A stretch of 64,000 nucleotides of DNA from an uncultured virus (IMG/VR IMGVR_UViG_2061766007_000892) (IMGVR_UViG_2061766007_000892), one strand, 5' to 3'. Counted from the first letter of the stretch, positions 28,445 through 44,451 are shown. Notes: generated from the letters alone by a model not told the origin. Program-made: numbers and translations.

Positions 28445-28510
28445 TAATTTTCTTTGCTATTGGAGTGCCAATACNNNNNNNNNNTTGTAAGTGTTTTCCT
28501 TCACTTCTTG
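28445..28510 (-). ncRNA. candidate short ORF-less transcript carrying the AAGGAAAA-loop hairpin
   Basis: TTGACA(28544-39)-17-TATAAT(28521-16), then AAGTG-AAGGAAAA-CACTT and a second hairpin TATTGG/CCAATA; contains a 10-nt N gap. Confidence 0.45.
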
Positions 28511-28540
28511 ATTATATTATATCACAGAGTTTGGGATTTG

Positions 28541-28696
28541 TCAAGTAAAGAATCGGTTAATTTTCTTTCTTGCCATGCGGCGGAGTTTGCGGCGGAGATT
28601 GCGCTGGTTCTTGTTATTGGAGATAAAACGGCGGCAACCCGCGTTCAAATCCCATGCCATAGTCTCGCGATCAATGCGCTTGTAGAGTGCTTTCAT
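28541..28696 (-). CDS. small basic protein
   Basis: Own promoter and RBS; R/K-rich. Confidence 0.7.
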   Translation of the reverse strand: MKALYKRIDRETMAWDLNAGCRRFISNNKNQRNLRRKLRRMARKKINRFFT

Positions 28697-28816
28697 TTCC
28701 TTTCCCTCCTGACATATATAGTATAGCAGAAACGCCAAGCAAAGTCAATAGGTTTACAAAAACTTAACAAAACGGGCCGGGCGATTAATTAACGAAAAAT
28801 TAACGCGGAATCCGCG

Positions 28817-29083
28817 TTAATGTTCTACTCGTTTAATGCGCCAAAACCAATTCCAAGGTTCTTGACTCAAAGAAGGTTTAATAGTGCGCCAATAATAACC
28901 AACTTTCATTCCTTTGAATACCAAGTGGCCATTTTCGCGAACGTGAGAATGGTAGACAATAAAGCCAATATGCCTGTTGTCTTGTTCTACCAGTCGATAC
29001 AAATCTTCTCGGACATCTTCGGGGAGATCTTCGGGACGATACCAACCCAGTTTGTGCGTTTTGCAATACTCTTTGAAAGTCAT
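28817..29083 (-). CDS. hypothetical protein
   Basis: Own promoter and RBS. Confidence 0.75.
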   Translation of the reverse strand: MTFKEYCKTHKLGWYRPEDLPEDVREDLYRLVEQDNRHIGFIVYHSHVRENGHLVFKGMKVGYYWRTIKPSLSQEPWNWFWRIKRVEH

Positions 29084-29195
29084 ATTGTTTTTACCCCTTT
29101 CTTTTTTCTATATATATTATACTCCCACATTTGAGAAAAGTCAAGTAAAGATTTTGTTAACTACAGGCCCGGCCCGACTTTTAACACAAAATTAA

Positions 29196-29217
29196 TAGAG
29201 GGCTTTCGCCCTCTATT
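29196..29217 (-). terminator. hairpin terminator-like
   Basis: AATAGAGGGC-TTTC-GCCCTCTATT (overlapping arms) directly after the stop codon. Confidence 0.7.
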
Positions 29218-29607
29218 TTACCGCAGGGTGTAGGTGTTAGCCTTCCCCTTGGCTTCGGTCTTTACAATCTCGTCCGCCAGTTCGTGGAGCAGAATATACT
29301 GCACCTTGGCGCTAGTGAAATCTTTGGGAAGCGCATCGGCGCAACGCTCAAAGATTTCCTTGGCGGTGCCGCCTTCAGTCAGAGCATCACGCAGGATGGG
29401 GAGAACCTGCGCCATCAGCACAGCGCGCTCATTAGCACGCTTAGCCTTAGCCCTCGCCTTAGTGTCCTCGCTGACCTTGCGCGGCTTCGCGATCTGGTCG
29501 CGAATCTTCGTGAGGACTTCCACCACTTCGGTGGGGTTCTCAATGTCCATGGGGATGGAGTTGATAGCAATGTTCAGAGCGTCAACGCGGGTGATGGTGT
29601 TCTTCAT
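29218..29607 (-). CDS. winged-helix-like family protein 1
   Basis: TAKEIFERCADALPKDFTSAKVQYILLHELADEIVK...NTY. Confidence 0.8.
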   Translation of the reverse strand: MKNTITRVDALNIAINSIPMDIENPTEVVEVLTKIRDQIAKPRKVSEDTKARAKAKRANERAVLMAQVLPILRDALTEGGTAKEIFERCADALPKDFTSAKVQYILLHELADEIVKTEAKGKANTYTLR

Positions 29608-29708
29608 AATGTTTCCCTTTCTGGTTTTTAGGACTTTTCCTTGTCCTCTTGATGTATTTATTATATCAGATTCCCAACCGTTTGTCAAGTTAAGATTCTG
29701 TTATAATC

Positions 29709-29769
29709 TGGTGGAGCGAGGGGGAGTCGAACCCCTCTCACCGATCAGCAGGTGCTCTGCTCTCGCCCC
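29709..29769 (-). ncRNA. 61-nt tRNA-like RNA (acceptor stem with G3.U70-equivalent pair, T-arm, ACCA end, no D-arm)
   Basis: GGGGCGA...GGGGTTCGACTCCCCC TCGCTCC A CCA; own TTGACA-17-TATAAT promoter at 29809-29781. Confidence 0.7.
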
Positions 29770-29825
29770 TTGATGTATTCATTATATCACGTTTGTGATG
29801 TAATGTCAAGTTAAGAGTTTGTTAA

Positions 29826-29910
29826 GTCGGTTTTAGGTGGCCGATCAACTGTTGCATGTTTCTAATTACCACAACGCGCTTGCGCCTGCGCGCTCCCGTT
29901 TCCCTCACCA
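29826..29910 (-). ncRNA. candidate small RNA
   Basis: Promoter 29947-29919; GC-rich; no ORF with an RBS before the next promoter. Confidence 0.5.
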
Positions 29911-30076
29911 ACAAATATAGTATAGCAGAAATCGCGGTGAAAGTCAATACTTTGGCGTGTAAAGATTATGTTAAATCGCGGGCCGGGTGATTACTTAACA
30001 AATATTTTACATTACCCGGCCCGAGTTAGTCCTGGCTAACTCGCTCATAAAAAGAAAAGGGCTTGCGCCCTTTTCC

Positions 30077-30473
30077 TTATTCCGCAAGGCGATAGGTGTT
30101 CGCCTTATTCTTGGTCTCGGTCTTGACGACCTCGTCCTTCATCTCACGCAGAAGGACAGCCTGAACCTTCGCGGCGGTGAAGTCCTGCGGCAGACGCTCC
30201 TGCGNNNNNNNNNNNNNNNNNNNNNNNNGTCATGTCAGCGGTCATGACATTGCGCAGAATCGGCACAACCTGCGCGCACATCTCGGCACGCTTCGCGGCG
30301 TTCTGCTCCTTGCGCTTCGCAGAAGCCTTCGCCTTGGAATCCTCGCTACGCTGGGAGCGCTTCGCAAGGGTCTCGCGCAGAGCAGTCAGACGCTCCGCAA
30401 CATCGGGCATGGTGTCCTTCATGGTGTCAATGGCGGTGGACAGAGCAACGGCGTAAGTCATGGTGTTCTTCAT
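30077..30473 (-). CDS. winged-helix-like family protein 2 (frame offset across N-run)
   Basis: 3' frame reads QERLPQDFTAAKVQAVLLREMKDEVVKTETKNKANTYRLAE*. Confidence 0.8.
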
Positions 30474-30569
30474 TTTGATTCCCTTTCTGGTTTGTGAGGT
30501 TTTCCTTCCTCTGTTGTGTATTCATTATAGCACGTTTTGTGCCTAATGTCAAGTTAAGAGTTTGTTAAG

Positions 30570-30705
30570 AGTTATTCCTTTTCGTTTCTCTTAACTACGC
30601 CTGCGGCTGTGCGCTTAGTGGGAACAGGCGGTCGTAAGTTGTGGGGAGTGCTTCGCGGGCGCCACGCGGTTGAGGGGCTATCCCCTGTTCCTGTCCTCTC
30701 AACAT
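30570..30705 (-). ncRNA. candidate structured small RNA (or leaderless 36-aa ORF)
   Basis: Promoter 30738-30710; GGAACAGG/CCTGTTCC long-range pairing. Confidence 0.5.
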
Positions 30706-30754
30706 CTTTATTATACCAGAGATTTTGTCGTTTGTCAAGTTAAGATTTTGTTAC

Positions 30755-30818
30755 GATTGGGAGGGATTCCGCCGCCACGGGACGCGCACGACGCGGTTTC
30801 CCTTTCCCCTCTCGACAT
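30755..30818 (-). ncRNA. candidate small RNA
   Basis: Promoter 30852-30824; GAGGG/CCCTC closing stem; no credible ORF. Confidence 0.5.
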
Positions 30819-30934
30819 ATATAATTATAGCGGAAGTTCTGCTCAAAGTCAAGTAATTATGAGACTATTTAACACAATCTTAACAAAGCGGGCCGGGCGA
30901 GTTTTTAACATAAAATTAAAGTAGCGGCGAACCG

Positions 30935-31213
30935 CTACTCAATTTCAATACTATAATGGTCATCAGGGCAGAACCAAACATCTTCATGTCCGTCAATATA
31001 ATTCCGTTCAGTGTTGGTAATGGTTAAATCAAAACCATTGCCAAGAATTGCGCCGATGGTCTGTTGAAGATTAGCCATCAATTCCTGCCGCAAAGTTTCA
31101 CGGCGTGCTTTCTTCTCATTTTCAACCTTGGTTTGACATGCTTTTGCAAGCGCTTCCAGTTCATTTAAGTTCAACAGAGAGAGATTGGTAATCATGCCGT
31201 CAAAAGTATTCAT
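30935..31213 (-). CDS. hypothetical protein
   Basis: Own promoter and RBS. Confidence 0.75.
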   Translation of the reverse strand: MNTFDGMITNLSLLNLNELEALAKACQTKVENEKKARRETLRQELMANLQQTIGAILGNGFDLTITNTERNYIDGHEDVWFCPDDHYSIEIE

Positions 31214-31277
31214 ATTGTTCTATTCCTTTCTTTTGATGTATTTATTATAGCATGGATTTAGAAGAAAGTCAAGTTAA

Positions 31278-31481
31278 TTATTCGTTAAGTCTATATTTTC
31301 CTTGCGGTTTAAATGGTTCATCATCAACAATAACTGGATAATCAGGAAATTTGAATAATCTCCAAAAGGAAAAACGCTTATAATTTTTAGACCAAATGCG
31401 GCCCAAATACCAATTGCCGAAAAGGTGAATAATGGGATAGCCAAAATCACGCAAACGCTGGATTCTTTCTTCACGATTCAT
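31278..31481 (-). CDS. hypothetical protein
   Basis: Own promoter, AAGGAG RBS. Confidence 0.7.
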   Translation of the reverse strand: MNREERIQRLRDFGYPIIHLFGNWYLGRIWSKNYKRFSFWRLFKFPDYPVIVDDEPFKPQGKYRLNE

Positions 31482-31609
31482 AAATGAAATCTCCTTTCCT
31501 TTTCTGCATATAGTATACATCAAATCAAGAATGAAGTCAAGTTAAATTTGTGTTAAATAACAAGCCGGCCCGAAATTTAACATACATTTAACAAAGAAGG
31601 AAGTAACGG

Positions 31610-32029
31610 TTACACCGTTACTTCCCTATCAAGATACTGGTTATCATCGTCTTTATCAATCGGCTGGGACACAAGAGCCTTAAAGCCTACCGTGTTAAGG
31701 TCTTTCACAACCTTGCGCGCGGTACGCTTGCGCTCCTTTTCCTTTTCGGCGCGCTCTGCCTTTTCCTTGCGCTTCGCCGCCTTATCTGCGCGGTCGGCAA
31801 GCGTCAACTTCCAATCATCGGCGGCGGCGTAACNNNNNNNNNNNNNNNNNNNNNNNNNNNNNNNNNNNNNNNNNNNNNNNNCAAACTTTTCGTTGCCTTC
31901 GCTGTCTACGACAGGCAGAGCCAGTTCGCTTGCGCTGATAGGGAGAATGTCGCTGATGGGGTTCACGGCGTCAATGATGGTCTTGAGAACACGGTTGCGG
32001 ATTTCAGTTTCAAGAGAAGCCTTACTCAT
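31610..32029 (-). CDS. K/A/E-rich-tail family protein 2
   Basis: Leader hairpin; AAADDWK...ADKAAKRKEKAERAEK. Confidence 0.8.
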   Translation of the reverse strand: MSKASLETEIRNRVLKTIIDAVNPISDILPISASELALPVVDSEGNEKFXXXXXXXXXXXXXXXXXYAAADDWKLTLADRADKAAKRKEKAERAEKEKERKRTARKVVKDLNTVGFKALVSQPIDKDDDNQYLDREVTV

Positions 32030-32104
32030 GGGCGTTAGTCCTTTCTGGTTTGTGGTGTTTTCCTTCACCTTCTGGATATAGTATAGCAGAGTCGGGAGAG
32101 GAAG

Positions 32105-32248
32105 TCAAGTTAAGAAATCGTTAATAATTTCTTCAAGATACAATTCATCGGGTGAAATGTCGCTGTATTCAATAGAAATAGAATTATCCTCGTTGCGCGT
32201 ATAAACGGTATGCGGGTTATTGGTGTCAACTTCAATGGTGATAATCAT
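32105..32248 (-). CDS. small acidic protein (47 aa)
   Basis: MIITIEVDTNNP...EEIINDFLT*; the stop codon lies within the next -35 box. Confidence 0.65.
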   Translation of the reverse strand: MIITIEVDTNNPHTVYTRNEDNSISIEYSDISPDELYLEEIINDFLT

Positions 32249-32364
32249 TTGACTTTCTCCTTTCATTTTCTATAATTATTATAACACAAATTTCAGAAAA
32301 AGTCAAGTAAATTTTTTGTTAAATCTCGGGCCGGGCAGAGTTAACACGGATTTAACAATCCGTG

Positions 32365-32559
32365 TTAATCTTTATCTCCTTCTACAAGTATATTACAGCG
32401 GTCATCAATCATAATATCAAATCGGTCAATATTATTAGAAATAAATTCTAAAGCCCAAGTTAACCGACGAAAATATTGAGCGTCATTATCACATTTAGTT
32501 AGCACCGCAACTAAATCACTATGCAACTGGGCGCGTTCTTTTCTCATTTTAAGTGTCAT
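32365..32559 (-). CDS. hypothetical protein
   Basis: ORF track, AAGGAG upstream. Confidence 0.65.
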   Translation of the reverse strand: MTLKMRKERAQLHSDLVAVLTKCDNDAQYFRRLTWALEFISNNIDRFDIMIDDRCNILVEGDKD

Positions 32560-32700
32560 TTAATCCTTTTCTCCTTTCATAGCGTCGCGGCAAATTCGCT
32601 TGCCCTCTTTGCGTTCGTTTTTTTTGTTCTTTTTCTTCGCAGGCATTACGGAGGGGCGATAACCAACCCATAACTCACGATTCTGATTTTTCTTATCCAT
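32560..32700 (-). CDS. small basic protein (46 aa)
   Basis: MDKKNQNRELWVGYRPSVMPAKKKNKK... Confidence 0.6.
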   Translation of the reverse strand: MDKKNQNRELWVGYRPSVMPAKKKNKKNERKEGKRICRDAMKGEKD

Positions 32701-32908
32701 TTTCTTTTCTCTCCAATTCTTCTATTCTTGACCAACAAGCCATGCCGAAACAATGATTCATAAAATTATCATCAGGGGAAAAATGATTTTGCCATAGATA
32801 CCTAACTTCTTCAACATCGTTCAAACTTTTAATAAAATTATAAACGGCGGTTTCATAGTCAGGCTGATTTAATACCGCGTCATAGTAACGATTGTCTAAG
32901 GTGTTCAT
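32693..32908 (-). CDS. hypothetical protein
   Basis: Own promoter and RBS. Confidence 0.7.
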   Translation of the reverse strand: MNTLDNRYYDAVLNQPDYETAVYNFIKSLNDVEEVRYLWQNHFSPDDNFMNHCFGMACWSRIEELERKENG

Positions 32909-32965
32909 ATTATGTTCCCCTCACTTTCTGGAATTATTATAGCAGATTAGAAGATAGAAGTCAAG

Positions 32966-33046
32966 TTAAGATTTTATTATGAACCAAAGATATAATCCTA
33001 ATATGATTAAGGGGCCAATACCACATAAAATTACTTCTTTAATCAT
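32966..33046 (-). CDS. 26-aa single-TM peptide
   Basis: MIKEVILCGIGPLIILGLYLWFIIKS*; own promoter and GAGGGAG RBS. Confidence 0.55.
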   Translation of the reverse strand: MIKEVILCGIGPLIILGLYLWFIIKS

Positions 33047-33150
33047 CTTGTCTCCCTCACTTTCTGTATATAGTATACACGATTCACACGCAGAAGTCAA
33101 GTTAAGATTCTGTTAAACGACGGGCCGGGCAAATATTAAGGCGCAGTTAA

Positions 33151-33390
33151 TTACCACGCCTCATCAACTTCATACATATCACAACCCGCGTAGGGATCAT
33201 AGTTAGTTTCATCTATGTCGTCGGGGATGTCGGGGCACTCCTCATCACAAACGCGCTCATACTCATCATCAAGTTGACACACCAATTCAACAAGTATATC
33301 ATAGGCACGATCAGGTTTACCATTCTTCAACATAGCAAGAGCGTCATCGGCGAGCATCCGCAGTTCGTAGAAAAGATGAGTATTAGTCAT
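33151..33390 (-). CDS. acidic hypothetical protein
   Basis: DETNYDPYAGCD C-terminal motif; own promoter. Confidence 0.75.
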   Translation of the reverse strand: MTNTHLFYELRMLADDALAMLKNGKPDRAYDILVELVCQLDDEYERVCDEECPDIPDDIDETNYDPYAGCDMYEVDEAW

Positions 33391-33496
33391 AGTTGAAATC
33401 TCCTTTCTTTTTCTATATATAGTATACCAAAATCCAGGAGGAAAGTCAAGTTAATTCTGTGTAAATTATCTGGCCGGCCCGAAAATTAACAAAGAA

Positions 33497-34207
33497 TTAA
33501 CGGAGAGCAATTGCTCCCCGCTTAACTTTTTGCCAACAATTCCTTTTTATTCCTTTAAAGTTTTTGTCATATTCCAAACATTTTTCCATAATTTCCTTTT
33601 CAATCTTAACATCATCATAACCTTTATGTTCCTCGTGGAAGTTAGGGTCATTTGTTAAGAAAGAGTAAACAGTTTCTGCGGTGGCGCGGTAGTTTTTGCC
33701 GTGATTTGAAAAGTGGCGGTTAGTTTCGGCAAACGTCTTATATTCACTGGTTTGACAAATAGTGTCACACGCCATATTCCAAATACATACAAAATTAGTA
33801 GAGTAAGGGAAGAAATAACGATATTTAGATTTCGTTAAGAAGCGGAGCGTGGTGTTAAGGGCGTTGCGGTCAAAATTACAATTATACGCCGCAACCGTAT
33901 GGCAGTCATATTTTTCCATTAGGTTAAGAATATGACGCCGCGCCGCCATAAAATCAATCATTTGACGCTTTCCCTGTTGGATGTCCGCAATATATTCAGG
34001 AATCTTATCGGCATAGTAGGCAACCTTTACAAGTTCGCGTTCATAGACGAAAGTGTCACGAATCACAAAAGAGCCTTGCTCGCAGATTGAGTTTGTGTAA
34101 AGATCAATCAGCACAAAGCCGATGTCATAAACGATGGCGTCGGTCGTATCGTTTGCGGTTTCAACGTCAAGAAGAAGGAGGTAGCGGTCGGTGATGTTCA
34201 GAATCAT
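33497..34207 (-). CDS. DnaQ/DEDDh 3'-5' exonuclease
   Basis: LLDVET, AYNCNFD, HKGYDD motifs. Confidence 0.85.
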   Translation of the reverse strand: MILNITDRYLLLLDVETANDTTDAIVYDIGFVLIDLYTNSICEQGSFVIRDTFVYERELVKVAYYADKIPEYIADIQQGKRQMIDFMAARRHILNLMEKYDCHTVAAYNCNFDRNALNTTLRFLTKSKYRYFFPYSTNFVCIWNMACDTICQTSEYKTFAETNRHFSNHGKNYRATAETVYSFLTNDPNFHEEHKGYDDVKIEKEIMEKCLEYDKNFKGIKRNCWQKVKRGAIALR

Positions 34208-34337
34208 TTCGGTGAGTTCCTTTCCTAATTTCTGTATATAGTATACACCTGCCACGAGCGAAAGTCAAGTTAAGATTGTGTTAATTCGCGGGCCGGGCAA
34301 AAAGTTAACATAAAATTAAAGAAGGGCTGTGCCCTTC

Positions 34338-34919
34338 TTAATGAATCATTCCATAAATAGAAAGCCAATCATTAATTTTTTCATCAATAATGTCAGGGTC
34401 GATTACAATATTAAAACGGTCATTAGGAACGTGAGTATTAGGATAGTATTCGGCTAAATAATCAATCATATCAAGTTCAACGTGTTTTGGATTTATTTTA
34501 CCACAATCCCATCCTTTAATAATTTTTACTGTTTGAACATTTGAGTAAGTTCCAGAATTATTATCGGCGTGTTCTTGCGCTCGTTTTGATAAAGTTCTTT
34601 CAGTCGTGCCAACTTTAGAAAAAAGAAATTTATGATTAAAGTCATAATAATACATAAGATAAAACCATTTTGCCGCGCGGTGAATATCATAAAAAGCATT
34701 ATTTCCTTCGCTAATACGGCGAATACGATTTTTCACTTTTTGAGTTTTGTCAATAATGAAATCTTTAATCCATTTATATCCAATAACCATTCCTTCTTCA
34801 ATATATTTGACAAGTTTTGTATAAGCAGAATAAATTTTGTGATAATCTACATAAGGACTGGAATAAATATTCCACTGGGTTTCTACTGCGATTTTATACT
34901 GCTGTTCATTGCGCTTCAT
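34338..34919 (-). CDS. GIY-YIG/T5orf172-like domain protein
   Basis: WFYLM...KVGTTER...R..EH...E pattern; AT-rich relative to neighbours. Confidence 0.55.
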   Translation of the reverse strand: MKRNEQQYKIAVETQWNIYSSPYVDYHKIYSAYTKLVKYIEEGMVIGYKWIKDFIIDKTQKVKNRIRRISEGNNAFYDIHRAAKWFYLMYYYDFNHKFLFSKVGTTERTLSKRAQEHADNNSGTYSNVQTVKIIKGWDCGKINPKHVELDMIDYLAEYYPNTHVPNDRFNIVIDPDIIDEKINDWLSIYGMIH

Positions 34920-35077
34920 TTTGTTTTATCTCCTCTCAACTTTCTATATATATATTATACATAAAAAGTATCTCGGAGTCAAGTTAAATGATTGTTAAGT
35001 CCGCGCCCGGCCCGAAAATTAACGAAACCTTAACAAAATGAAATGTAAAGAAAAACCGCCCCGAAGGGCGGTTAGTC

Positions 35078-35413
35078 TTACTTCACCATGTAGGTGAAGG
35101 CGGACTTGCCGTTGTCAATCTTGACAACTTCATCGCGCCAGTAGTTCAGCAGAGCGTACTGAATCTTGTGCGCGGTGAAGCCATCGGGCAGGTCGTTCTC
35201 GCACTTGGCGAAAATCTCCTTGACCGTCATCGGCGCGGTCATCACGCCGAACACGATGGGCTTCGCGGCATCGTAGGCGTTAGCCTTTTCCGCGGACTTG
35301 GCAACCGTGCGCTCATACTCGGCGCGAATGTCCTCAACCACAGCGGACAGGTCAACGGTGTCGTCAGAGTTCACGAAGTAGTTGTACAGAGCGGTCAGAG
35401 TGTTCTTCTTCAT
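35078..35413 (-). CDS. winged-helix-like family protein 3
   Basis: TVKEIFAKCENDLPDGFTAHKIQYALLNYWRDEVVK...FTY. Confidence 0.8.
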   Translation of the reverse strand: MKKNTLTALYNYFVNSDDTVDLSAVVEDIRAEYERTVAKSAEKANAYDAAKPIVFGVMTAPMTVKEIFAKCENDLPDGFTAHKIQYALLNYWRDEVVKIDNGKSAFTYMVK

Positions 35414-35504
35414 AGTGTAGTGTCCTTTCTGGTTTGGTGGGTTTTCCTTCCCTTTGATGTATTTATTATAGCACCAATCGGCTATAATGTCAAGTTAAGA
35501 GTTT

Positions 35505-35568
35505 GTTAAAGGATTCTTCCTCAATCTACTGGGTTCTTTCAACCAGATTCGGCAAGAACCCTTTAACA
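35505..35568 (-). ncRNA. candidate small RNA with alternative folds
   Basis: Promoter 35602-35574; GGGTTCTT pairs with either AAGAACCC or AAGAATCC. Confidence 0.5.
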
Positions 35569-35616
35569 TCTTCATTATATCACGATTTCCCAACTTTGTC
35601 AAGTTAAGATTTCGTG

Positions 35617-35690
35617 AAGCTCAGGGCTCGCAAGCTCGGTGGCCATCTCCGAAGCATCAAAGGTTTTTAGCCCCTGTTTCCTTTCGACAT
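35617..35690 (-). ncRNA. candidate small RNA
   Basis: Promoter 35723-35695; CAGGG(G)CT/AGCCCTG closing stem; no start codon properly spaced from the RBS-like tract. Confidence 0.5.
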
Positions 35691-35872
35691 ATATAGTATA
35701 GCAGAAATTGAAATGAAAGTCAAACACTTAATGGGAAAGTTAACCAAATCTTAACATTGCGGGCCGGCCCGCGAATGTTAAGTTTTTGTAAAGTGCTTGA
35801 CTCTTGGCGGAATCTCTGCTATAATATTTACAGAAGCCAAGGAAAAGGCTCAAAAACCAGAAAGGGAATAAT

Positions 35873-36190
35873 ATGAACGCTAACGAAATCAAGTCCACCG
35901 CTCGTCAGATGACCATCTCTGCTATCATGCCCTCCCTGATGGACAACGATGCCGTCAAGTTCGCTGATGGCTCCTTCGCCATCCTCCAGACTGTTGACGG
36001 TCAGGAAGTTTGGACGGAAGTTACCGTCAAGTCCAAGGCGTGGAAGGACACCAAGGTGTCCAAGGCTTTTGACCCCTTCGTGGCTGCGGAGGAGTGGGAA
36101 GCCGAGAAGCGCATCAAGGCTGATGCCAAGGCTGCCAAGGATGCCGAAAAGGCTGCCAAGGTAGCCAAGGCTAAGAAGGAAGAGGCGTAA
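35873..36190 (+). CDS. K/A/E-rich-tail family protein 3 (inverted unit)
   Basis: Own promoter, leader hairpin and terminator. Confidence 0.85.
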   Translation: MNANEIKSTARQMTISAIMPSLMDNDAVKFADGSFAILQTVDGQEVWTEVTVKSKAWKDTKVSKAFDPFVAAEEWEAEKRIKADAKAAKDAEKAAKVAKAKKEEA

Positions 36191-36842: not shown

Positions 36843-36920
36843 GTTGTTTCCCTTTCTGGTTTGGAAGAGTTTTCCTTCTCTTATGTTCTTATTATAGCAG
36901 AAGTTGTGGAAGAAGTCAAG

Positions 36921-37082
36921 TTAAGATTTCATTAAATCTTGAATCAGTTGATGGATTTTTTCATAGTCCTCTTGATAACGATAGAGGTCAAATAAATGGA
37001 GTCGTGCGCGTTTGATGCGCGGGGACGCGGGTTGCTTTTTAATCCAATTGCGCATAGTATCAAGTTCCCAATTCCAATTCAT
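36921..37082 (-). CDS. small hypothetical protein (53 aa)
   Basis: MNWNWELDTMRNWIKKQP...; own promoter and RBS. Confidence 0.65.
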   Translation of the reverse strand: MNWNWELDTMRNWIKKQPASPRIKRARLHLFDLYRYQEDYEKIHQLIQDLMKS

Positions 37083-37183
37083 ATTGTATCCCCTCTTTCT
37101 GTAATTATTATAGCAGAATTTCGGGAAGAAGTCAAGTAAAGGTTGTGTTAAAAATCGGGCCGGCCAGAAAAGTTAAGATTCTG

Positions 37184-37621
37184 TTAAGCGAGGCTCAACA
37201 GAATCTTCATCATTTCATCGGGGTGGTAGGCGTTGCCGCCCCACGCTTCGCGGTTCGGGGCTTCGTCATCAAACAGGATACCCTCGCCGCACACGTCCCA
37301 CTTATTGCGACCATAGGCGACAATGTTAACCGCGTCCCACTTGACGGAGCCGAGATGCTTGTGGAGCCACCACAGTTTGGCGGCGGTCACTGCTTCGTCA
37401 TATTCGGGAGTGCTGGACTTGCTCAGCCAGCTGATGATTCCGAGCTTGTAGCCAGCTCGCTGGAGCTTATTCAGCGTCCGCGCCAGCTTGTTCATGTTGA
37501 CCAGCGGAGCCGCCAGCTTGTAGGGCGCGGGATTGCTATCAATCAGCATCGGGAGCCAATTTTCAACGCCGTAGAGGTTCGCAATCGTGCCATCCATGTC
37601 AAACCAGATCGTCTGCTTCAT
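37184..37621 (-). CDS. HAD-family (5'-nucleotidase-like) phosphatase
   Basis: WFDMDGTIANLY, IISW, K..W, ILFDD. Confidence 0.85.
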   Translation of the reverse strand: MKQTIWFDMDGTIANLYGVENWLPMLIDSNPAPYKLAAPLVNMNKLARTLNKLQRAGYKLGIISWLSKSSTPEYDEAVTAAKLWWLHKHLGSVKWDAVNIVAYGRNKWDVCGEGILFDDEAPNREAWGGNAYHPDEMMKILLSLA

Positions 37622-37801
37622 TTTGTTTACTTCCTTTCCTCTTTCTGTATATATTATATACCGAGCGGCGGCAAAAGTCAAGAGGTTAAAGGATGATTTA
37701 ACATGGATTTAACATGGCGGGCCGGGTGTTTTCTTAAAATGAAATTAACAGTTAGTTAGAGGAAACTAACTCACTGGCCGGCTAATAAATTAACAGGCCG
37801 G

Positions 37802-37942
37802 TTACGGGAGAATAATCTCCCGCACCGTCCATTCAACTCCTGTGCAGTTCGTTCTGAAATTGGCTGCGTTTTGCGCCTCTTCGCGCGTATGGTAAGAGGA
37901 AGAACCTTCAAAATTGCCGCAATAAATCCGATAGACGATCAT
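37802..37942 (-). CDS. small hypothetical protein (46 aa)
   Basis: Own promoter, AAGGAG RBS. Confidence 0.65.
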   Translation of the reverse strand: MIVYRIYCGNFEGSSSYHTREEAQNAANFRTNCTGVEWTVREIILP

Positions 37943-38074
37943 AAAATGAAATTCTCCTTTCGTTTCTTTCTGGAATAATTATAGCATATTGAGAATGAAA
38001 TGTCAAGTAGTTTTAGGATGTTTAACATAGAATTAACATTACTGGCCGGCCCGAAAATTAACATTAAAATAACA

Positions 38075-38243
38075 AACCGCGAGAGTTGATCAGTCTCTCG
38101 CGATGGGCAAAAACATCATTGACTTGCCCAAGGTCAATGGGGAACGGTTTTCGCATAATCGCTGGGGTCAGTTCTCCACCGCCAAGTGGTCTGTTGCCCC
38201 TTACTTTAACCCAATGGAATCACTCCCTCTTTCCTTTCGACAT
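38075..38243 (-). ncRNA. candidate structured RNA with H-type pseudoknot and 3' terminator
   Basis: Promoter 38276-38248; CATTGAC/GTCAATG plus TGGGCAA/TTGCCCA; CGCGAGAG/CTCTCGCG hairpin. Confidence 0.6.
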
Positions 38244-38346
38244 ATATATAATAACATAATTTCTGGAGGAAGTCAAGTTAATTGTTTGTTAACTTGCGGG
38301 CCGGCCGCGAATTTTACATAGAATTAAAGAAGGCATTAAGCCTTCT

Positions 38347-38499
38347 TTAATTGCAAAGTTGTTCGATGATGGTCATAATTACGCCGAAAATCAGAGGCGT
38401 CACCCAACACAAAGCACCATAGGGTACTTTGCCCATTGACCACAGAATGAAGTCAATCAAACCAGTAACTATGAGGATAAAGCTAATACCAATACGCAT
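38347..38499 (-). CDS. 50-aa two-TM peptide
   Basis: MRIGISFILIVTGLIDFILW...; variant leader hairpin. Confidence 0.65.
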   Translation of the reverse strand: MRIGISFILIVTGLIDFILWSMGKVPYGALCWVTPLIFGVIMTIIEQLCN

Positions 38500-38588
38500 A
38501 TTATTATCCTTTCTGGTTTTAAAGTGTTCCCTTCACTTGTTGTGTATAATATATCATATTAGAGTTGAGAAGTCAAGTTAAGATTTTG

Positions 38589-38780
38589 TTATATTACTTT
38601 CATTGTTTCTACTTCTCTATAAAAAGCATGGTCGCTCCAACTATTTTTATAGTGGATATTATTAAAATTTTCACACCATTTTTTCGCTTCTTCTTCTGTC
38701 GCAGTAAAGCCCATTGACGTGTCTTTTGTGCCGATATACACACCGCAATCGCAAGGAGTAGAAACAAAAAGCTGATACAT
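38589..38780 (-). CDS. hypothetical protein
   Basis: Own promoter and RBS. Confidence 0.7.
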   Translation of the reverse strand: MYQLFVSTPCDCGVYIGTKDTSMGFTATEEEAKKWCENFNNIHYKNSWSDHAFYREVETMKVI

Positions 38781-38885
38781 ATGATTTTCTCCCTTCATTT
38801 GATGTATATAGTATAGCATTTTATGAGTAAATTGTCAAGTTAATTGTGTGTTAACCCGCCGGCCGGCCAGAAAGTTAACGCAGAC

Positions 38886-39131
38886 TTAACGTCTGCGTCT
38901 TGCTTTCTGCTGGTCAAAACGCTCATATGCGCTGACCTTGCGATATTCGTTATACTCGGCTTCGGTGATTTCCTTGCCATAGATTGCCATGCGCGTGTGC
39001 TTAACACTTGGCATCCTGCGCGCTTTGTCGCAAGCATCCAGAAGATTGTTCGCCGCGATTGCGAACTTGATTTCAGTGCTGTGGCCTACGCCGCAATGAC
39101 CCCGATGGCACATGACCATGTAGAACTTCAT
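38886..39131 (-). CDS. His/Cys-containing basic protein
   Basis: CHRGHCGVG...MPSVKH; own promoter. Confidence 0.75.
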   Translation of the reverse strand: MKFYMVMCHRGHCGVGHSTEIKFAIAANNLLDACDKARRMPSVKHTRMAIYGKEITEAEYNEYRKVSAYERFDQQKARRRR

Positions 39132-39203
39132 TTGAATTGCTCCCTTCGTTCTTTCTGTATTTATTATAGCAGATTGGTTGGTGATTGTCAAGTTAAGTTT
39201 GTG

Positions 39204-39380
39204 TTAAAGCAGACCAAAGATTTTTGCTGGGATAGGTGATAGCATCATCATGCTAAGGAAAACAATCATACGCCAATTAACCTTGAAGCAATCATTTTCA
39301 TCGGCATCATCCGCATGGAGGATACCAAAGAAACCAAACAAGCAAGCAACCAACACATAAGGAATCATCAAAAACTTCAT
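39204..39380 (-). CDS. 58-aa membrane peptide
   Basis: MKFLMIPYVLVACLFGFFGIL...; own promoter. Confidence 0.65.
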   Translation of the reverse strand: MKFLMIPYVLVACLFGFFGILHADDADENDCFKVNWRMIVFLSMMMLSPIPAKIFGLL

Positions 39381-39482
39381 TTTCTTTCCCTCACTTTCTG
39401 ATATTATTATACATTATCGCGCCAGGAAAGTCAATAGTTTTTATGTTAGGATTGTGTTAAATAACGGGCCGGCCCGAAAAGA

Positions 39483-39674
39483 TGAGAGGGGCGTTTCTTC
39501 CCCTCTCGGTGGCTCCATCCTTCTAGCCTAGCGCTTCCAGAGCCCGCGCGTATGTTGCCTGCACATTTATATACCGCAAAGGAGGGCTTCGGCTTGCGGT
39601 GGTTTCATCGGTTAGGACTTACGGACGCTCTTGGGTCTCACCCGTTGTGGGCTTTGCCTTCCCTCAACCTCTGT
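39483..39674 (-). ncRNA. candidate ~190-nt multi-stem RNA
   Basis: Promoter 39707-39679; stems ACCGCAA/TTGCGGT, GGCTC/GAGCC, GAGAGGGG/CCCCTCTC. Confidence 0.55.
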
Positions 39675-39759
39675 ATATATTATAATCCAAGAGTTGCGAT
39701 TTGTCAAGTTAAGAGTTTGTTAACAAGCGGGCCGGCCAGCGGAGAGCATGTGCTCTCCA

Positions 39760-39885
39760 TTAGGCCGCGGGGCGGATGATCAGATCCGCCCGATCCGCCC
39801 AAGTTAGGCGGAGCGCCTGCGCCTCGCGCAGGGAGAGGCCCGACAGGATGACCCTGCCAGTGCTGACCTTGTAAATCTCAAACAT
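39760..39885 (-). CDS. small protein (41 aa)
   Basis: MFEIYKVSTGRVILSGLSLREA...; AAGGAG RBS and own promoter. Confidence 0.65.
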   Translation of the reverse strand: MFEIYKVSTGRVILSGLSLREAQALRLTWADRADLIIRPAA

Positions 39886-39974
39886 TTTGTTTTCTCCTTT
39901 CCTTTGATGTGTCTATTATACCAGATTGTAGCTTGCCTGTCAAGTTAAGATTTGGTTTAGTTGGACGCCCGCCG

Positions 39975-40442
39975 TTAGGCGTTAGCGTCCAACCACGCCA
40001 GCATCTTGGAGCTGGTAGCCGCGATCCGGATGACCCCGCGCTCGTTGAGCTTGGCGAACTTCCGCAGGAACCGCTCGAACTTCGTGGCATTCATCTTGTA
40101 GATGGTAGCCAGCTCGTCGGTGGTGGTCACATACCAGAACTCGGAGCTCGCCACCTGCTCGAAGTAGGCCGTCAGGCTCGCTTCGAAGCTGTCAGCCAGC
40201 TTCATGTTGGTCAGGCTTGCCTTGGAGCTCTTGATGCTCGCGCGGAACTCGGGAATATCGGAGCCTTCATCGAAGCGGGTATTAGCATCCTTGTGGGGAT
40301 CCAGCCCGTGGAGCGCCTTGGCGACAGCTTCCATGAACTCGCCGCCGTTGAGCCAGCTTTCGCCGCCGTTGATGCTATACTTGGCGCCTTTGCGCGCGGC
40401 GTTGTAGGTGTAAGTCAGGTTAATTTCACGGGTCATCTTCAT
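39975..40442 (-). CDS. possible PD-(D/E)xK-fold protein
   Basis: NGGEFME...GSD...SIKSS pattern. Confidence 0.6.
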   Translation of the reverse strand: MKMTREINLTYTYNAARKGAKYSINGGESWLNGGEFMEAVAKALHGLDPHKDANTRFDEGSDIPEFRASIKSSKASLTNMKLADSFEASLTAYFEQVASSEFWYVTTTDELATIYKMNATKFERFLRKFAKLNERGVIRIAATSSKMLAWLDANA

Positions 40443-40769
40443 TTCAAGCACCTCTCTTTCAACTGTATATATTATAACAGACCAATGTTAACTGATAAGC
40501 ATTTTTTGATGAAGTTTGTGTAAAGTTGTGAAATTCAATCTACGGTAGAATTTGCTCCAAGTTGCGCAACCAACAGTTGATTAGTTAGCCTAAACTAACT
40601 CGGCGGGCCGGTCCATTTCTTAACCTGTTCTTAACAGAAAAGTTTCATATAGTTTTAACATAGAGATAATACGTAGTTAACATTAATATGGTATAATATC
40701 GGGGGAGCCTCAAGTTAGTTATGACTAACTTTAGTTAGTTAGTCTAAACTAACTGGGCCGGCCCGTTAT

Positions 40770-41010
40770 CATTATACTGCCACTTTACTATGATAAAGTA
40801 GTGCTACTTTATTATGCTACTATGTTATCACTTTATCATACTACTACTTTACTATGTTACCACTTTACTATGCTACCATGCTACTATGCTGCTACTTTAC
40901 TATGATGCTATATTATCACTTTACCATGCTATCATACTGCTACTTTACTATGCTACCATACTATTACTTTACCATGTTACTATAAAACTACTTTACTATG
41001 ATAAAAGTCA
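40770..41010. repeat. degenerate tandem repeat of CTACTTTACTATG/CTACCATG units
   Basis: Low-complexity array beginning with the palindrome ACTTTA-CTATGA-TAAAGT. Confidence 0.85.
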
Positions 41011-41059
41011 AAAGTCAAAGAAAGTCAAATTGGCCGGCCCGTGAATTACAAAACTATTT

Positions 41060-41365
41060 AATTATTACAGAAGTATTTCATATTTGATTTTGCCGCAAAA
41101 GTCCGGTGGCCTGCGGAAGAAAAAAAGTTGCACAAAAAGTTAAGTAGAAATGTTATGGCTGTGTTAATTTGGCCTGTTGAAAACGTTTTCGTAGTGGGTT
41201 TCTTTACATGGAATTAACATTTCTTTTGTGTTGTTTGTGCACTTTTTTCGCATCGCCTCGTAGAGCCGTTTTTAAGCGATATAATCAACCGGCCGGTTGT
41301 TCTAACCGCGAAAAACGCCCTCACAGAGGAAAGCTGCACAGAGTTGTAATACTTCTGTAATAGTT
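41060..41365. other. strand-switch hub with nested inverted repeats
   Basis: TATTACAGAAGTATT (41063) / AATACTTCTGTAATA (41348); inner symmetry about 41185. Confidence 0.7.
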
Positions 41366-41492
41366 AGTTAGTCAAAACTAACTGGCCCGGCCAGCAAGTT
41401 TACATATAATTAACACTAAAAGGTATTGACAACCGGATATTTTCATGGTATAATGTAATCACAAAAGAGAGAGAAACAAGGAGGAAACAACA

Positions 41493-41753
41493 ATGATGCA
41501 CTTTGATGTTATGGTTTTCTGCTGTGATGATGACCCTGTGGTGGTTGATTCCTTTGATGCGGTTGATTTCGCTGATGCTTATCGCATCGCGGCGGATGTG
41601 CTGGATTATGATATGGGTTTGGCGCATGAGACCTTTGGCGAGGAAGGCTATTACATCCGCTTTGATGGCGGCGAGATTTGGCAGAATGACGACATGTATG
41701 CTGGTGTTGGCGATGTGCCGCGGTTCAATGTCTATATGGATGACGAGGATTGA
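41493..41753 (+). CDS. very acidic small protein
   Basis: D/E-rich; own TTGACA-17-TATAAT promoter; AGGAGG RBS. Confidence 0.8.
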   Translation: MMHFDVMVFCCDDDPVVVDSFDAVDFADAYRIAADVLDYDMGLAHETFGEEGYYIRFDGGEIWQNDDMYAGVGDVPRFNVYMDDED

Positions 41754-41844
41754 GTTCACTCAATCCTTTTTTTTGGTATAAAGTTAGTCATGACTAACTA
41801 TCTGGCCGGCCAGTTAGTTTACATAAAGTTTACATAAAAAGATA

Positions 41845-41873
41845 TTGACAAATCTGATTTGATGTGTTATAAT
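41845..41873 (+). promoter_or_regulatory. consensus sigmaA promoter with upstream TTTACA-N5-TTTACA box (example of the array promoters)
   Basis: TTGACA-17-TATAAT; boxes at 41818 and 41829. Confidence 0.85.
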
Positions 41874-41879
41874 GTATTC

Positions 41880-41934
41880 AAGAAGAGAGGAAAGGACGGG
41901 CTGAGCAAGGAACGCGGACATAAAAGCCGCGGAG
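41880..41934 (+). ncRNA. candidate short GGA-rich RNA
   Basis: No start codon before the next promoter; five GGA motifs; CGCGG/CCGCG stem. Confidence 0.4.
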
Positions 41935-42009
41935 TTAACGAACTCTTAACTTGACAGTTCGCTGAATCTCTGGTATAATAAAGACATCAAAGAGAGAGGG
42001 GTAAACACC

Positions 42010-42231
42010 ATGAAGAACATTCGCGAATACTTCCACGATCTGTATCTGCAGGCGGGCATGGACGAGGACAAGTTTGATGAGGTCATTGAACTGGAAAATG
42101 AAGTGTATGAAATGAACGATGAGGACTTTGAGACCTACTGTCACGACAATGGCATTGACCTGACCGCGAGGGATGAGCGCACTGGTGAACTGGTGGTCAC
42201 TCTGTGGGGCTGGGACATGTGCGGCGAATAA
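42010..42231 (+). CDS. acidic small protein
   Basis: Own promoter and terminator. Confidence 0.8.
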   Translation: MKNIREYFHDLYLQAGMDEDKFDEVIELENEVYEMNDEDFETYCHDNGIDLTARDERTGELVVTLWGWDMCGE

Positions 42232-42379
42232 GCCGCATTTTTTTTAGATTAAGTTAGTTTTGACTAACCATCTGGCCGGCCAGCGGTTTAACATAGACTT
42301 TACATAAAAAAGTATTGACATTCGTCTGGGTGCATGGTATAATATATACAGAAATTGAGAGAGGAAAGAGGTAATTACA

Positions 42380-42688
42380 ATGACGTATGAAGCAATGATC
42401 GCAAGAATGGATAATCTGAATTATCGTGGCAAGGCTAACCGTCCGATGAAGCGCGTTAACTACACCGCGGAAATTAAGATCGTTACGACTGAACAGACCA
42501 AGGATATTAAGGTTTTTGGCGCGAATAAACTGACGCTTATGCGGCGGACGGATGTAGCAATTTTGAACTTCGCCAATTATCGTCTTAATCGTTATGCGTA
42601 TGATGAAGAGGACGAAACCGAAGAAATCATTTCTATCACGATAAAGGAAACTGATCGCGATGGCAATATTATCATCATTGAACAATAA
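42380..42688 (+). CDS. hypothetical protein
   Basis: Own promoter; AAGCGC-GAAA-GCGCTT terminator. Confidence 0.8.
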   Translation: MTYEAMIARMDNLNYRGKANRPMKRVNYTAEIKIVTTEQTKDIKVFGANKLTLMRRTDVAILNFANYRLNRYAYDEEDETEEIISITIKETDRDGNIIIIEQ

Positions 42689-42858
42689 GCGCGAAAGCGC
42701 TTATTTTTTTATTGCTATAAAGTTAGTTAGTCATAACTAACTCTTCTGGCCGGCCGGTGACTTAACATAAAGTTTACACAAGAAATTTGAAAAAAGGGGT
42801 TGACATTTGCCCGGGCTGATGATATAATATATACATAAAGAGCAAGGGGGAAACAAAA

Positions 42859-42969
42859 ATGTTCGAGTATATGACTGTTGAAGAGATCGCCGCCACCATG
42901 ACCGATGAAGGCTGGTTTGACCTGATGACCGAGTGCTACATAGACGAGATTGTGGAAGAGGAGATTTAA
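42859..42969 (+). CDS. 36-aa acidic peptide
   Basis: MFEYMTVEEIAATMTDEGWFDL...EEEI*; own promoter. Confidence 0.65.
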   Translation: MFEYMTVEEIAATMTDEGWFDLMTECYIDEIVEEEI

Positions 42970-43052
42970 TCTCCTCTTAACACAAAAAGGTATTGACAAT
43001 CATTCCGGTCTGTGTTATAATAGTATCATCAAAGAGAGGGAGGAAACAAACA

Positions 43053-43214
43053 ATGACTATCAACGAGATGAAGAACAACGTGATTCGCACCTTCGGCTTC
43101 GAGCATCCCGCTACTATCTACTTCTTCGAGGAGTGCGAGCGCACTAACGATCTTGACATCATCGAGGTTGCCTACTGGTTCGCGATGGGCTGGAAGGACG
43201 AGGACGAGGAATAA
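43053..43214 (+). CDS. acidic small protein
   Basis: VIRTFGFEHPATIYFF; own promoter and terminator. Confidence 0.75.
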   Translation: MTINEMKNNVIRTFGFEHPATIYFFEECERTNDLDIIEVAYWFAMGWKDEDEE

Positions 43215-43384
43215 TCCTCGTCCTTTTCTATTGCCAATGAGTTAGTTAGTCTAAACTAACTCAACGGGCCGGCCAGTCCGTTAACTTAAACTTTACAGAA
43301 GAAATTTTCAAAAACCTATTGACATTTGCTTTTCTATGGTGTATAATATAGTCACAAGGTTGAGAGAGAAAGGAAGTAAAAACA

Positions 43385-43855
43385 ATGAAGAAGTTCTACA
43401 ACAAGCACCTGACCGTCACCGAGACCCGTGCCCTGATTAACGAAGGTTACAAGTATAGCGTTGATTGCGATTATACCACCACCAACACCACCGACCCGTG
43501 GAGCGGGATGCCCAACATTGACAACAACGTGGCGGTGTTCATGGACAAAGCCGAAGCCGAAGCCTATGCGGCTGAGCAAGTGTGGCCCTTCAATCCTGAT
43601 GTCCATGGCAAGGTCGAAGAACTGGTTTGGGGCGAGACCTACGCGGAAATGGACGCACGGCTGGCTCGCGAAAAGGCTGAGCGCAAAGCCAAGAAGGACG
43701 CCAAGGAAGCTGAAAAGGCCGCGGCGGCTGGTATGACAGTTGCGGAATACAGGGCTGCGAAAGCCAAAGCCGCCAAGCGGGCACGACTGGAAAAGGAAGT
43801 CGCCCGACTGGAAAATGAACTCGCCGCTGCGCGTGCGGAACTCGCCAAGATGTAA
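43385..43855 (+). CDS. protein with K/A-rich coiled-coil C-terminus
   Basis: Own promoter and terminator. Confidence 0.8.
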   Translation: MKKFYNKHLTVTETRALINEGYKYSVDCDYTTTNTTDPWSGMPNIDNNVAVFMDKAEAEAYAAEQVWPFNPDVHGKVEELVWGETYAEMDARLAREKAERKAKKDAKEAEKAAAAGMTVAEYRAAKAKAAKRARLEKEVARLENELAAARAELAKM

Positions 43856-44023
43856 GAAGGGCGCAAGCCCTTCTTATTTTTATATGTATAGTTAGTTAGT
43901 ATAAACTAACCATTCTGGCCGGCCCGCAACTTAACATACACTTTACAGAAAAAAAGATTGACAAGTGTCCGGTTATGTGCTATAATAGTATCAACGAAAG
44001 GGAAAGAAAAGGAGAGAAAAACA

Positions 44024-44206
44024 ATGAAGAAGATGGAGAAGCGTTTTGTCACTCGCCAATTTTATTGGGGCAATAATAGAGATTGGAACGTTTGGGATAA
44101 GTTGGAAAGCAAATGGATGTTTAGACTTGGGTGCTGTGGACGTGAGCGTGCTTTAAAGTTCGCTGATGAAATGAATAACGAATATTATAAAGAGATTTTT
44201 AAGTAA
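44024..44206 (+). CDS. hypothetical protein
   Basis: Own promoter, AAGGAG RBS, terminator. Confidence 0.75.
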   Translation: MKKMEKRFVTRQFYWGNNRDWNVWDKLESKWMFRLGCCGRERALKFADEMNNEYYKEIFK

Positions 44207-44371
44207 GAGCGATAGCTCTTACTTTTTTAATAAGTGGTTAGTTAGTCATAACTAACTCAGGCCAGCATAGTTAGTTTACATTAACTAATATTTCTGGCCG
44301 GCCTATAACTTTACATATACTTTACACAAAGAGGGGTTGACAAACCCCTTCTTTTTTGCTATAATATAGTT

Positions 44372-44451
44372 GCACCGGAACGGAGGGACAGGGGAGAGTG
44401 AAGGCATAGGTTAGTTATAACTAACTTATGCGGATGCCCGAATCTGCCTTT
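44372..44451 (+). ncRNA. candidate short ORF-less transcript containing a GTTAG-N6-CTAAC hairpin
   Basis: Promoter 44337-44365; GCATAGGTTAGT-TATA-ACTAACTTATGC. Confidence 0.4.

Follow-up and report, generated by a model that had tools for sequence, protein, structure and literature searches.

What do eleven promoters make when no recognisable gene follows them? The question is raised by a 64,000-nucleotide (nt) stretch of DNA from an uncultured virus (IMG/VR IMGVR_UViG_2061766007_000892; the whole stretch is referred to here as the window), a novel lytic tailed phage of the gut, in whose early region eleven units – U1 to U11 – begin at consensus promoters and lack a ribosome-binding site (RBS) followed by an open reading frame (ORF). 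On balance, and with modest confidence, we favour the view that most of these orphan promoters belong to genuine genes for non-coding RNAs, which have the form of cassettes. The units differ in kind: U3 is a tRNA-like minihelix, U8 and U9 stand alone, and U2 and U4–U7 are payloads with closing stems, set in tandem arrays.

Matches to TTGACW-N17-TAYAMT number 50 in the window where 0.14 are expected, a count that none of 100 shuffles reached, and 43 of the 50 fall within 27907–44511, in the divergent early region (~27.9–45 kb; minus-strand genes as far as 40.5 kb, plus-strand genes from 41.4 kb). The G+C content here (28000–46000) is 45–49%, compared with ~30% elsewhere and 19–40% in the structural and replication regions. 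A looser pattern gives 51 promoters between 26 and 46 kb, with a Shine–Dalgarno (SD) sequence and start codon 23–52 nt downstream in 36 of them and absent in 15. Those 15 comprise the eleven units of the original prediction and four others, which were set aside (32249+, 33274+ and 34807+, antisense within genes, and 41018−, in a repeat array). Given the promoter excess and the match of 11 of the 15 RBS-less promoters to units noted earlier, the orphan-promoter observation is real and lies far beyond chance.

Much of the original prediction was borne out. It had described consensus promoters without RBS and ORF, and all 11 proved to be so: no ORF of at least 10 codons with a properly spaced SD was found in any of them. 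Ten of them lie behind an exact match to TTGACW-N17-TAYAMT, the exception being U8 (TTGACT-17-TATTAT with a TG extension). It had also placed six units directly before genes of a winged helix-turn-helix family – two each before genes 29607, 30473 and 35413 – and so they lie, all three genes matching the family profile. The units are, overall, as dissimilar to one another as had been claimed, except that U6 and U8 have one 19-nt 5′ leader in common.

How the units are built emerges from 16 related loci (given L numbers here, as are other contigs), recovered through a mid-region gene for a 236-amino-acid exonuclease-like protein with 95–47% amino-acid identity; each carries 4–17 orphan promoter units. 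The promoter is kept in all 20 blastn homologues of the window's units and the payloads are 88–100% conserved among homologues. A common layout recurs – TATAAT, ~6 nt, GUUGAGAGGG, payload, CCCUCUCAAC, UUCAC-AAAUCUUAAC, next −35 element – and its two ends vary in matched pairs (GUUAAAGGGAA/UUCCCUUUAAC, GUUCCGAAGG/CCUUCGGAAC and UCAAGGGGC/GCCCCUUGA). Among 84 distinct tandem units, the terminal helix joining 5′ and 3′ ends has a mean length of 7.10 bp, compared with 5.84 ± 0.12 bp for permuted partners (highest of 200 permutations, 6.18), and reaches at least 9 bp in 21 units where 4.9 are expected, figures that overstate independence because the 84 units are related to one another. When G·U pairs are allowed, the helices are longer on the transcribed strand in 37 units and on the opposite strand in 22 (p = 0.02).

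The slots between these constant parts are filled differently from one relative to the next, with tRNA-Lys(UUU), with other tRNA-like RNAs or with nothing. In four of the 16 loci (L025, L026, L030 and L031) tRNA-Lys(UUU) is the only tRNA and lies within the early arrays, in L030 at the position equivalent to U4; where L021 and L019 can be compared ahead of one and the same gene, the former has three units and the latter a different first unit.

U3 is the sole payload whose kind can be named: to judge from its sequence, it is the tRNA-like domain (TLD) of a transfer-messenger RNA (tmRNA) without the tag-coding part. The predicted start site is followed by a 5-nt leader, AUCAA, and a 7-bp acceptor, GGGGCGA/UCGCUCC, with G3:U70, the discriminator A73 and CCA encoded in the sequence. 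A 26-nt insert with a small hairpin, containing neither a tag reading frame nor pseudoknots, separates the acceptor from the T arm, and the T arm itself, AGGGG-UUCGACU-CCCCC, has a 7-nt loop of the UUCGA type and adjoins the 3′ strand of the acceptor. The minimum-energy fold consists of exactly these parts: acceptor, hairpin and T arm. The Rfam tmRNA model aligns with U3 end to end (21.5 bits, E 2.9e-5), its 324-nt middle shrinking to 21 nt, and at E-value thresholds Rfam gave only tmRNA-type matches in the early region and three related loci. U3 is the sole element with a T arm and CCA in the window, no other unit being tRNA-like. Alanyl-tRNA synthetase (AlaRS) charges G3:U70 minihelices.

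U3 is no canonical tRNA, having 61 nt and no cloverleaf with D and anticodon arms, and ARAGORN finds no tRNAs in the window. A genome scan for its 3′ end, aimed at the host, gave five matches; the one examined, L038, was binned with Acutalibacteraceae, yet it is a related phage's contig and no host tmRNA. The true tmRNA of that bin differs from U3.

A scan of the U3 3′ flank across viral and metagenome contigs returned 25 distinct sequences, 23 of them complete, and all 23 consist of leader, 7-bp acceptor, an insert of 26–123 nt, T arm, A73 and CCA, which one of them replaces by CUA. Their acceptors fall into seven types, each mutually complementary, with G3:U70 in three and without it in the other four (three of which read G3:C70). 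Longer tRNA-like members also occur – 119 nt (L022, L023, L026, L047, L052 and others), 109–112 nt (L059, L064, L051) and 158 nt (L020, L050, L065) – in which the G3:U70 acceptor and T arm are kept and the insert measures 74–123 nt. The long inserts have in common a hairpin with the loop AUCRGGGNA, GGUAA and UUGCAAAAG, and these members may be miniature tmRNA-like RNAs.

The nearest published counterpart is that of mycobacteriophage DS6A, entered as ‘TLD only’ by Hudson, Lau and Williams (2014, PMC4131195). We located its element at 28478–28560 of JN698994, where it measures 83 nt and scores 43.2 bits, itself below the 47-bit threshold of the model. U3 resembles it in being phage-encoded, in its G3:U70 acceptor and T arm, in having no tag frame or pseudoknots and in the expected competition with host tmRNA. 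It differs in being shorter (61 against 83 nt) and lower-scoring (21.5 against 43.2 bits), in lacking both the D-loop analogue and a helix 2 stub, and in encoding CCA and having its own consensus promoter within a tandem RNA array of a low-GC, Firmicute-type phage. A molecule similar to TLD-only tmRNA is reported to inhibit tmRNA strongly, perhaps by titrating SmpB (PMC4131195, PMC11915505). The suggestion that the units are decoys has a precedent here, for U3 and for none of the other units. Minihelices of acceptor, T arm and CCA, 52–78 nt long, are also present on three unrelated viral contigs – L004 (1483–1560; 78 nt, 35.6 bits, D-loop analogue and helix 2 base kept), L017 (1501–1557; 23.2 bits) and L013 (246–297; 52 nt, its own TGcTATAAT promoter, no Rfam match). 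It would seem, then, that among phages TLD-only RNAs are commoner than the one case in print suggests.

For the remaining units, the evidence comes from folding and from conservation. Ten were folded against shuffled sequence, U1 being left out for its masked N run. The description of the set as structured holds in this test for U7 (z −5.9; none of 200 shuffles as stable; the longest 5′–3′ helix of the set) and for U11 (z −3.4, owed to its palindrome), whereas the other eight, with z between −1.1 and +0.9 (U10: −0.8), do not beat their shuffles. Compensatory changes nonetheless speak for conserved structure in U8 and U5. In an alignment of eight U8 sequences (90% mean identity), nine of 40 predicted pairs show a compensatory change, six in the terminator and three in internal hairpins; no pair outside the terminator is broken, and the loops are mostly invariant, with three single-base indels within this 90%-conserved sequence. 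The four-member U5 family has 23 predicted pairs, four of them compensatory, and in a further hairpin, read from the alignment, CGCG/CGCG of the window becomes CACAC/GUGUG in L021. Homologues of U2 are 96–98% identical in L021, L022 and L028, where they carry GUCGGU/ACCGAC, and U7 has one homologue, in L023, with 98% identity. U8 and U9 end in their own intrinsic terminators. On their sequences, U5 and U8 are best described as further structured RNAs, and U2, U7 and U9 probably are as well. An antisense role towards the phage's own genes was considered and rejected, as no unit shows complementarity of more than 14 nt within the 64-kb window. Coordinates are collected in Table 1.

Table 1. Orphan promoter units of the window and the winged-helix genes that lie behind the arrays
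Feature	Coordinates	Strand	Related loci with homologue (of 16)	Description
U1	28420..28544	−		Promoter 28544–28516; 5′ hairpin (loop AAGGAAAA); ~60 nt without RBS or ORF; masked N run
U2	29810..29947	−	3	Promoter 29947–29919; 87-nt RNA; terminal helix GUUGGU/ACCGAC; first in array before gene 29607
U3 promoter	29781..29809	−		TTGACA-17-TATAAT with TG; consensus
U3	29709..29769	−	2	61-nt tRNA-like minihelix of TLD-only tmRNA type
U4	30739..30852	−	0	Promoter 30852–30824; 64-nt GC-rich RNA; first in array before gene 30473
U5	30553..30738	−	2	Promoter 30738–30710; ~150-nt RNA; three conserved hairpins; 5′ GUUGAGAG pairs with 3′ CUCUUAAC
U6	35603..35723	−	0	Promoter 35723–35695; polypurine 5′ leader; payload closed by CAGGGGCU..AGCCCUG (read from sequence); trailer CUUCACGAAAUCUUAAC
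U7	35494..35602	−	1	Promoter 35602–35574; 64-nt long hairpin; 15-bp terminal helix
U8	38066..38276	−	7	Promoter 38276–38248; ~170-nt RNA; terminator hairpin 38102–38078 and U tract; stand-alone RNA gene
U9	39478..39707	−	2	Promoter 39707–39679; ~190-nt RNA; terminator 39507–39484 and U tract; stand-alone RNA gene
U10	41845..41950	+	2	Promoter 41845–41873; 55 nt; one small hairpin; next promoter at 41951
U11	44337..44482	+	1	Promoter 44337–44365 into palindrome GTTAGTTATAACTAAC (44410–44425) and weak terminator-like hairpin
Winged-helix family gene	29218..29607	−		Behind array U2–U3; AlphaFold pLDDT 87.6; family profile
Winged-helix family gene	30075..30473	−		Behind array U4–U5; frame broken at masked N run; 3′ end by homology
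Winged-helix family gene	35078..35413	−		Behind array U6–U7; family profile

The arrays have a constant neighbour. In a survey of the window and 13 related loci, 33 of 379 promoter-driven genes belong to the winged-helix family; every one of the 33 has at least one orphan unit before it, and 26 of the 27 multi-unit arrays lie ahead of a family gene. Two of the window's three family genes are paralogues (40% identity, E 1e-15). The AlphaFold model of the 29607 protein shows three helices and then a winged-helix domain, with generic and weak fold matches (FOX, PadR, Fur, Z-alpha and ROQ, all with E of at least 0.04). The protein matches no Pfam or PHROG family and has no sequence relative in the PDB, and the 538 metagenomic members of its family are without annotation.

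Since the three window arrays contain no terminator-like site, their units are also parts of the long leaders of the winged-helix genes, and this gives rise to a possible, if not a probable, alternative: that U2–U7 are cis-acting parts of winged-helix transcripts, with stacked promoters that boost early expression and structured segments that form long 5′ leaders and act, for instance, in processing, in stabilisation or as sites bound by the encoded protein. Not only the strict link to the gene family and the missing terminators fit such a role but also the predicted nucleic-acid-binding fold of the protein and the terminal helices, which look like processing sites; ribonuclease III sites in the early RNA of phage SP82 offer a parallel. 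It accounts less well for payloads that include complete tRNA-Lys and minihelices of acceptor, T arm and CCA – types of molecule that act in trans – and for their free exchange between gene subfamilies, U5-type units preceding a 30473-type gene in the window and 35413-type genes in L021, L025 and L030. U8 and U9, with their own terminators, have no winged-helix gene behind them. The cis-leader and RNA-gene readings are not mutually exclusive.

A number of observations weigh against taking the units as RNA genes, and against the identity proposed for U3. The score of U3 is well below the Rfam RF00023 gathering threshold of 47 bits and no higher than the 22–29 bits that ordinary tRNAs obtain on the tmRNA model; its D-loop analogue (GGAUUCGA-like) and helix 2 base are gaps in the Rfam alignment, and as it has no D-loop analogue, unlike the DS6A element, SmpB binding is uncertain. 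Nor would alanine charging be universal in these slots, because related ones also hold G3:C70 variants. Eight of the ten folded units are no more stable than shuffled sequence, and the compensatory changes counted for U5 and U8 are not independent events, because the homologue sets are small and related. U9 has two homologues, which at 96–97% identity are too close to test its structure (a renewed scan gave the same two contigs), and U4 and U6 have none in the 16 related loci. The terminator-less arrays, always placed before one gene family, fit a cis role equally well, and empty cassettes, together with U1, show that some units are by-products of recombination. Finally, three bovine-gut runs that contain 5–6% of sampled words are labelled metatranscriptomic and are probably DNA: nothing came of them but mosaic contigs from relatives, which show neither ends nor strand.

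Recombination could also be the whole story, the units being neutral debris of promoter-mediated exchange – duplicated promoters with leftover sequence, in a shuffling region like the PeSL cassettes of T4-type phages – which we judge unlikely. There is a precedent for recombination at repeated early promoters in the account of PeSL (PMC2839356), and the window and its relatives supply further points: U1 amounts to a promoter and leader stump, cluster-11 units in L019, L020 and L022 are the leader and trailer of a tRNA-Lys cassette minus the tRNA, the spread of units among relatives is patchy and most fold energies are unremarkable. Debris would hardly be expected, however, to have payloads conserved at 88–100% with invariant loops and compensatory stem changes, terminal helices that exceed permuted controls and are biased to the transcribed strand, or tRNA-like payloads that keep all identity elements across seven acceptor types. 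Nor is there remnant protein similarity: decayed protein genes were considered and rejected, blastx and tblastx giving only nucleotide homologues and no translated similarity to the 379 promoter-driven genes.

For U1 itself, recombination is the better account. In L019, L022, L024 and L025 a U1-type promoter with its 5′ hairpin directly drives the homologue of gene 28339–28004, so that U1 is probably a recombination scar or tandem promoter; it looks like a second promoter and leader inserted in the window, a duplicated promoter and leader stump. U10, which has in L019 and L023 homologues with the stem conserved and the loop variable, and U11 are doubtful as RNA genes, U11 being a promoter that reads into a recurrent intergenic palindrome. 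The original proposal of a set of small RNAs (sRNAs) stands for several units, which behave as RNA genes, and falls for U1 and U11, which are probably not sRNAs. The hairpin seen in U1 is found more widely: the mRNA leaders of genes 28339, 29607, 30473, 35413, 36842 and 38499 have a common 5′-terminal hairpin with loop AAGGAAAA, whose stem covaries between genes (GAGGAC/GUCCU, GAAGUG/CACUU, GGG/CCC and others), followed by AAACCAGAAAGGG and the start codon, and it may be a 5′ stabiliser or ribosome-loading element.

Translation of the units into micro-proteins, whether leaderless with an AUG at the transcription start or by way of weak internal starts, is very improbable. An ATG does lie 5–6 nt past the −10 element in U4, U5 and U7, opening frames of 27, 36 and 24 codons, but neither it nor the frame is kept in homologues: homologous or similar units read ATTGTT, ACGTT or GGTGTT in its place and a 1-nt indel moves U5 homologues to a different frame, while U6 and U8 stop after seven codons, the conserved U8 sequence contains its three single-base indels and spaced-SD ORFs are missing throughout; the micro-ORF alternative raised at the outset found no support. 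Equally hard to credit are the RNA anti-CRISPRs (solitary repeat mimics) and type III antitoxin mimics that had been suggested, for which only position speaks – short promoter-driven RNAs in an early region of counter-defence type – since the units contain no direct repeats (ToxI-like ~36-nt tandems) and nothing common to them beyond the 19-nt leader, and the only match to a CRISPR-repeat model in Rfam (E 3.2, 35793–35829; a mimic of an uncatalogued host repeat could escape these models) lies outside every unit.

If the units are indeed RNA genes built as cassettes, their life during infection can be sketched. A cassette would consist of a consensus early promoter, a purine-rich 5′ end, an end-paired payload and a constant trailer (UUCAC..AAAUCUUAAC) leading into the next promoter; host sigma-A polymerase would fire it immediately after infection, and the terminal helix and purine-rich 5′ end would stabilise the RNA. 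Recombination between the repeated promoters and trailers shuffles payloads among related phages, as comparison of the loci shows. tRNA-Lys(UUU) is the tRNA attacked by anticodon nucleases; because relatives place it in the same slots, the arrays look like an early arsenal of RNAs that mimic or replace those of translation. U3 would be trimmed by ribonuclease P, as its identity elements and reports on such molecules suggest, probably charged by AlaRS (identity elements; PMC4131195), and would vie with the tmRNA of the host for SmpB and EF-Tu, so that ribosome rescue is damped. A more far-reaching version, which we offer as a rather doubtful proposal, is a modular RNA arsenal: individually promoted, interchangeable mimics or spares of host translation RNAs, among them tRNA-Lys, tmRNA acceptor domains and other folds, in every case accompanied by the gene of a winged-helix protein. 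By binding these RNAs, or the helices that close them, the protein would form decoy ribonucleoproteins against RNA-targeting defence or quality control of the host.

Several ingredients of this picture are already known: TLD-only phage tmRNA, shuffling between repeated early promoters, anti-defence tRNA-Lys, non-coding RNAs from early promoters and an anti-CRISPR that uses tRNA and tmRNA fragments. In the PeSL system, as described by Arbiol et al. (2010, PMC2839356), tiny cassettes are likewise flanked by numerous strong early promoters of sigma-70 type, and their content is shuffled among close relatives by recombination between promoters, as in the clade of the window. What those cassettes contain, however, is small protein genes, with a stem-loop that serves as terminator, whereas the cassette content here is RNA, the helix pairs the payload's 5′ end with its 3′ end and the arrays are terminator-less; U8, U9 and most protein genes of the window do have terminators. 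A virus-encoded tRNA-Lys is reported to rescue infection from the tRNA-cleaving defence PARIS (PMC11464382), which recalls the single tRNA-Lys(UUU) in the arrays of relatives; the window itself differs in having no tRNA.

AcrIIIA1 of the staphylococcal phage Twillingate is presented as an anti-CRISPR complex of protein and RNA, in which a small phage protein and pieces of tRNA and tmRNA act against host nucleases (PMC11662646), a parallel in general plan to tRNA- and tmRNA-like RNAs encoded beside a small winged-helix protein; the RNAs in that report are host fragments, whereas those of the window would be phage-encoded. Phage K produces lnc and snc RNAs from early promoters (PMC9241854), and these, like the units, are ORF-less early transcripts near tRNA genes whose function is unknown; in that account they are single loci, neither tied to one protein family nor arranged as a dozen cassettes with a promoter for each RNA. 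The units themselves, in tandem arrays with one promoter per RNA and tied to one protein family, have no counterpart in any description that we found in the literature. The stable RNAs species 1 and 2 of phage T4 are also ORF-less early transcripts near tRNA genes, from single loci.

Phage counter-defence and host takeover have been studied almost entirely through proteins, and here a widespread clade devotes about one-fifth of its early promoters to RNAs. For U3 there is a specific prediction, that it naturally inhibits trans-translation or else serves as a sink for enzymes acting on tRNA acceptor ends, while for the other RNAs, which cannot be classified, the strict winged-helix link is a handle for finding partners. 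The cassette format illustrates a way in which genes for RNAs can pass between phages with the same ease as small ORFs. The arsenal, if true, would represent a module for host takeover or counter-defence that is based on RNA and forms a class of its own, hitherto undescribed.

Some features of the phage and its early region deserve mention in their own right. The portal protein is ~30% identical to those of Enterococcus and Phass-type phages, no nucleotide relatives of 28000–35900 (7.9 kb) were found among 50,697 phage records, and the tiny genes that crowd the early region match no Pfam or PHROG family. Masked N runs lie at 28481–28490 (in U1) and, within three early genes, at ~30199–30222, ~31880–31930 and 44607–44622. 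A group I intron (49211–49422, 96.8 bits) lies between ORFs 48493–49317 and 49440–50573. A palindrome family, GTTAG(TTAG)..CTAAC, is confined to the early region, with 23 occurrences against 0.31 expected at ~16 sites between 26624 and 44425 (for example 40734–40753, 43241–43260 and 44237–44256); its members usually lie just past a terminator, ahead of a GGCCGGCC/CGGGCCGG motif and GTTAA/TTAACA repeats, and the family, to which the U11 palindrome belongs and whose other members are intergenic, looks like a shared protein-binding or recombination site. Finally, between and beside the divergent early units, 40814–41003 and 45000–45400 hold arrays of 16-, 24- and 48-nt repeats (CTACTTTACTATG-like) with inverted ACTTTACCATGATAAAGT elements, for which an origin, a genome terminus or a region used in packaging could each be the explanation.

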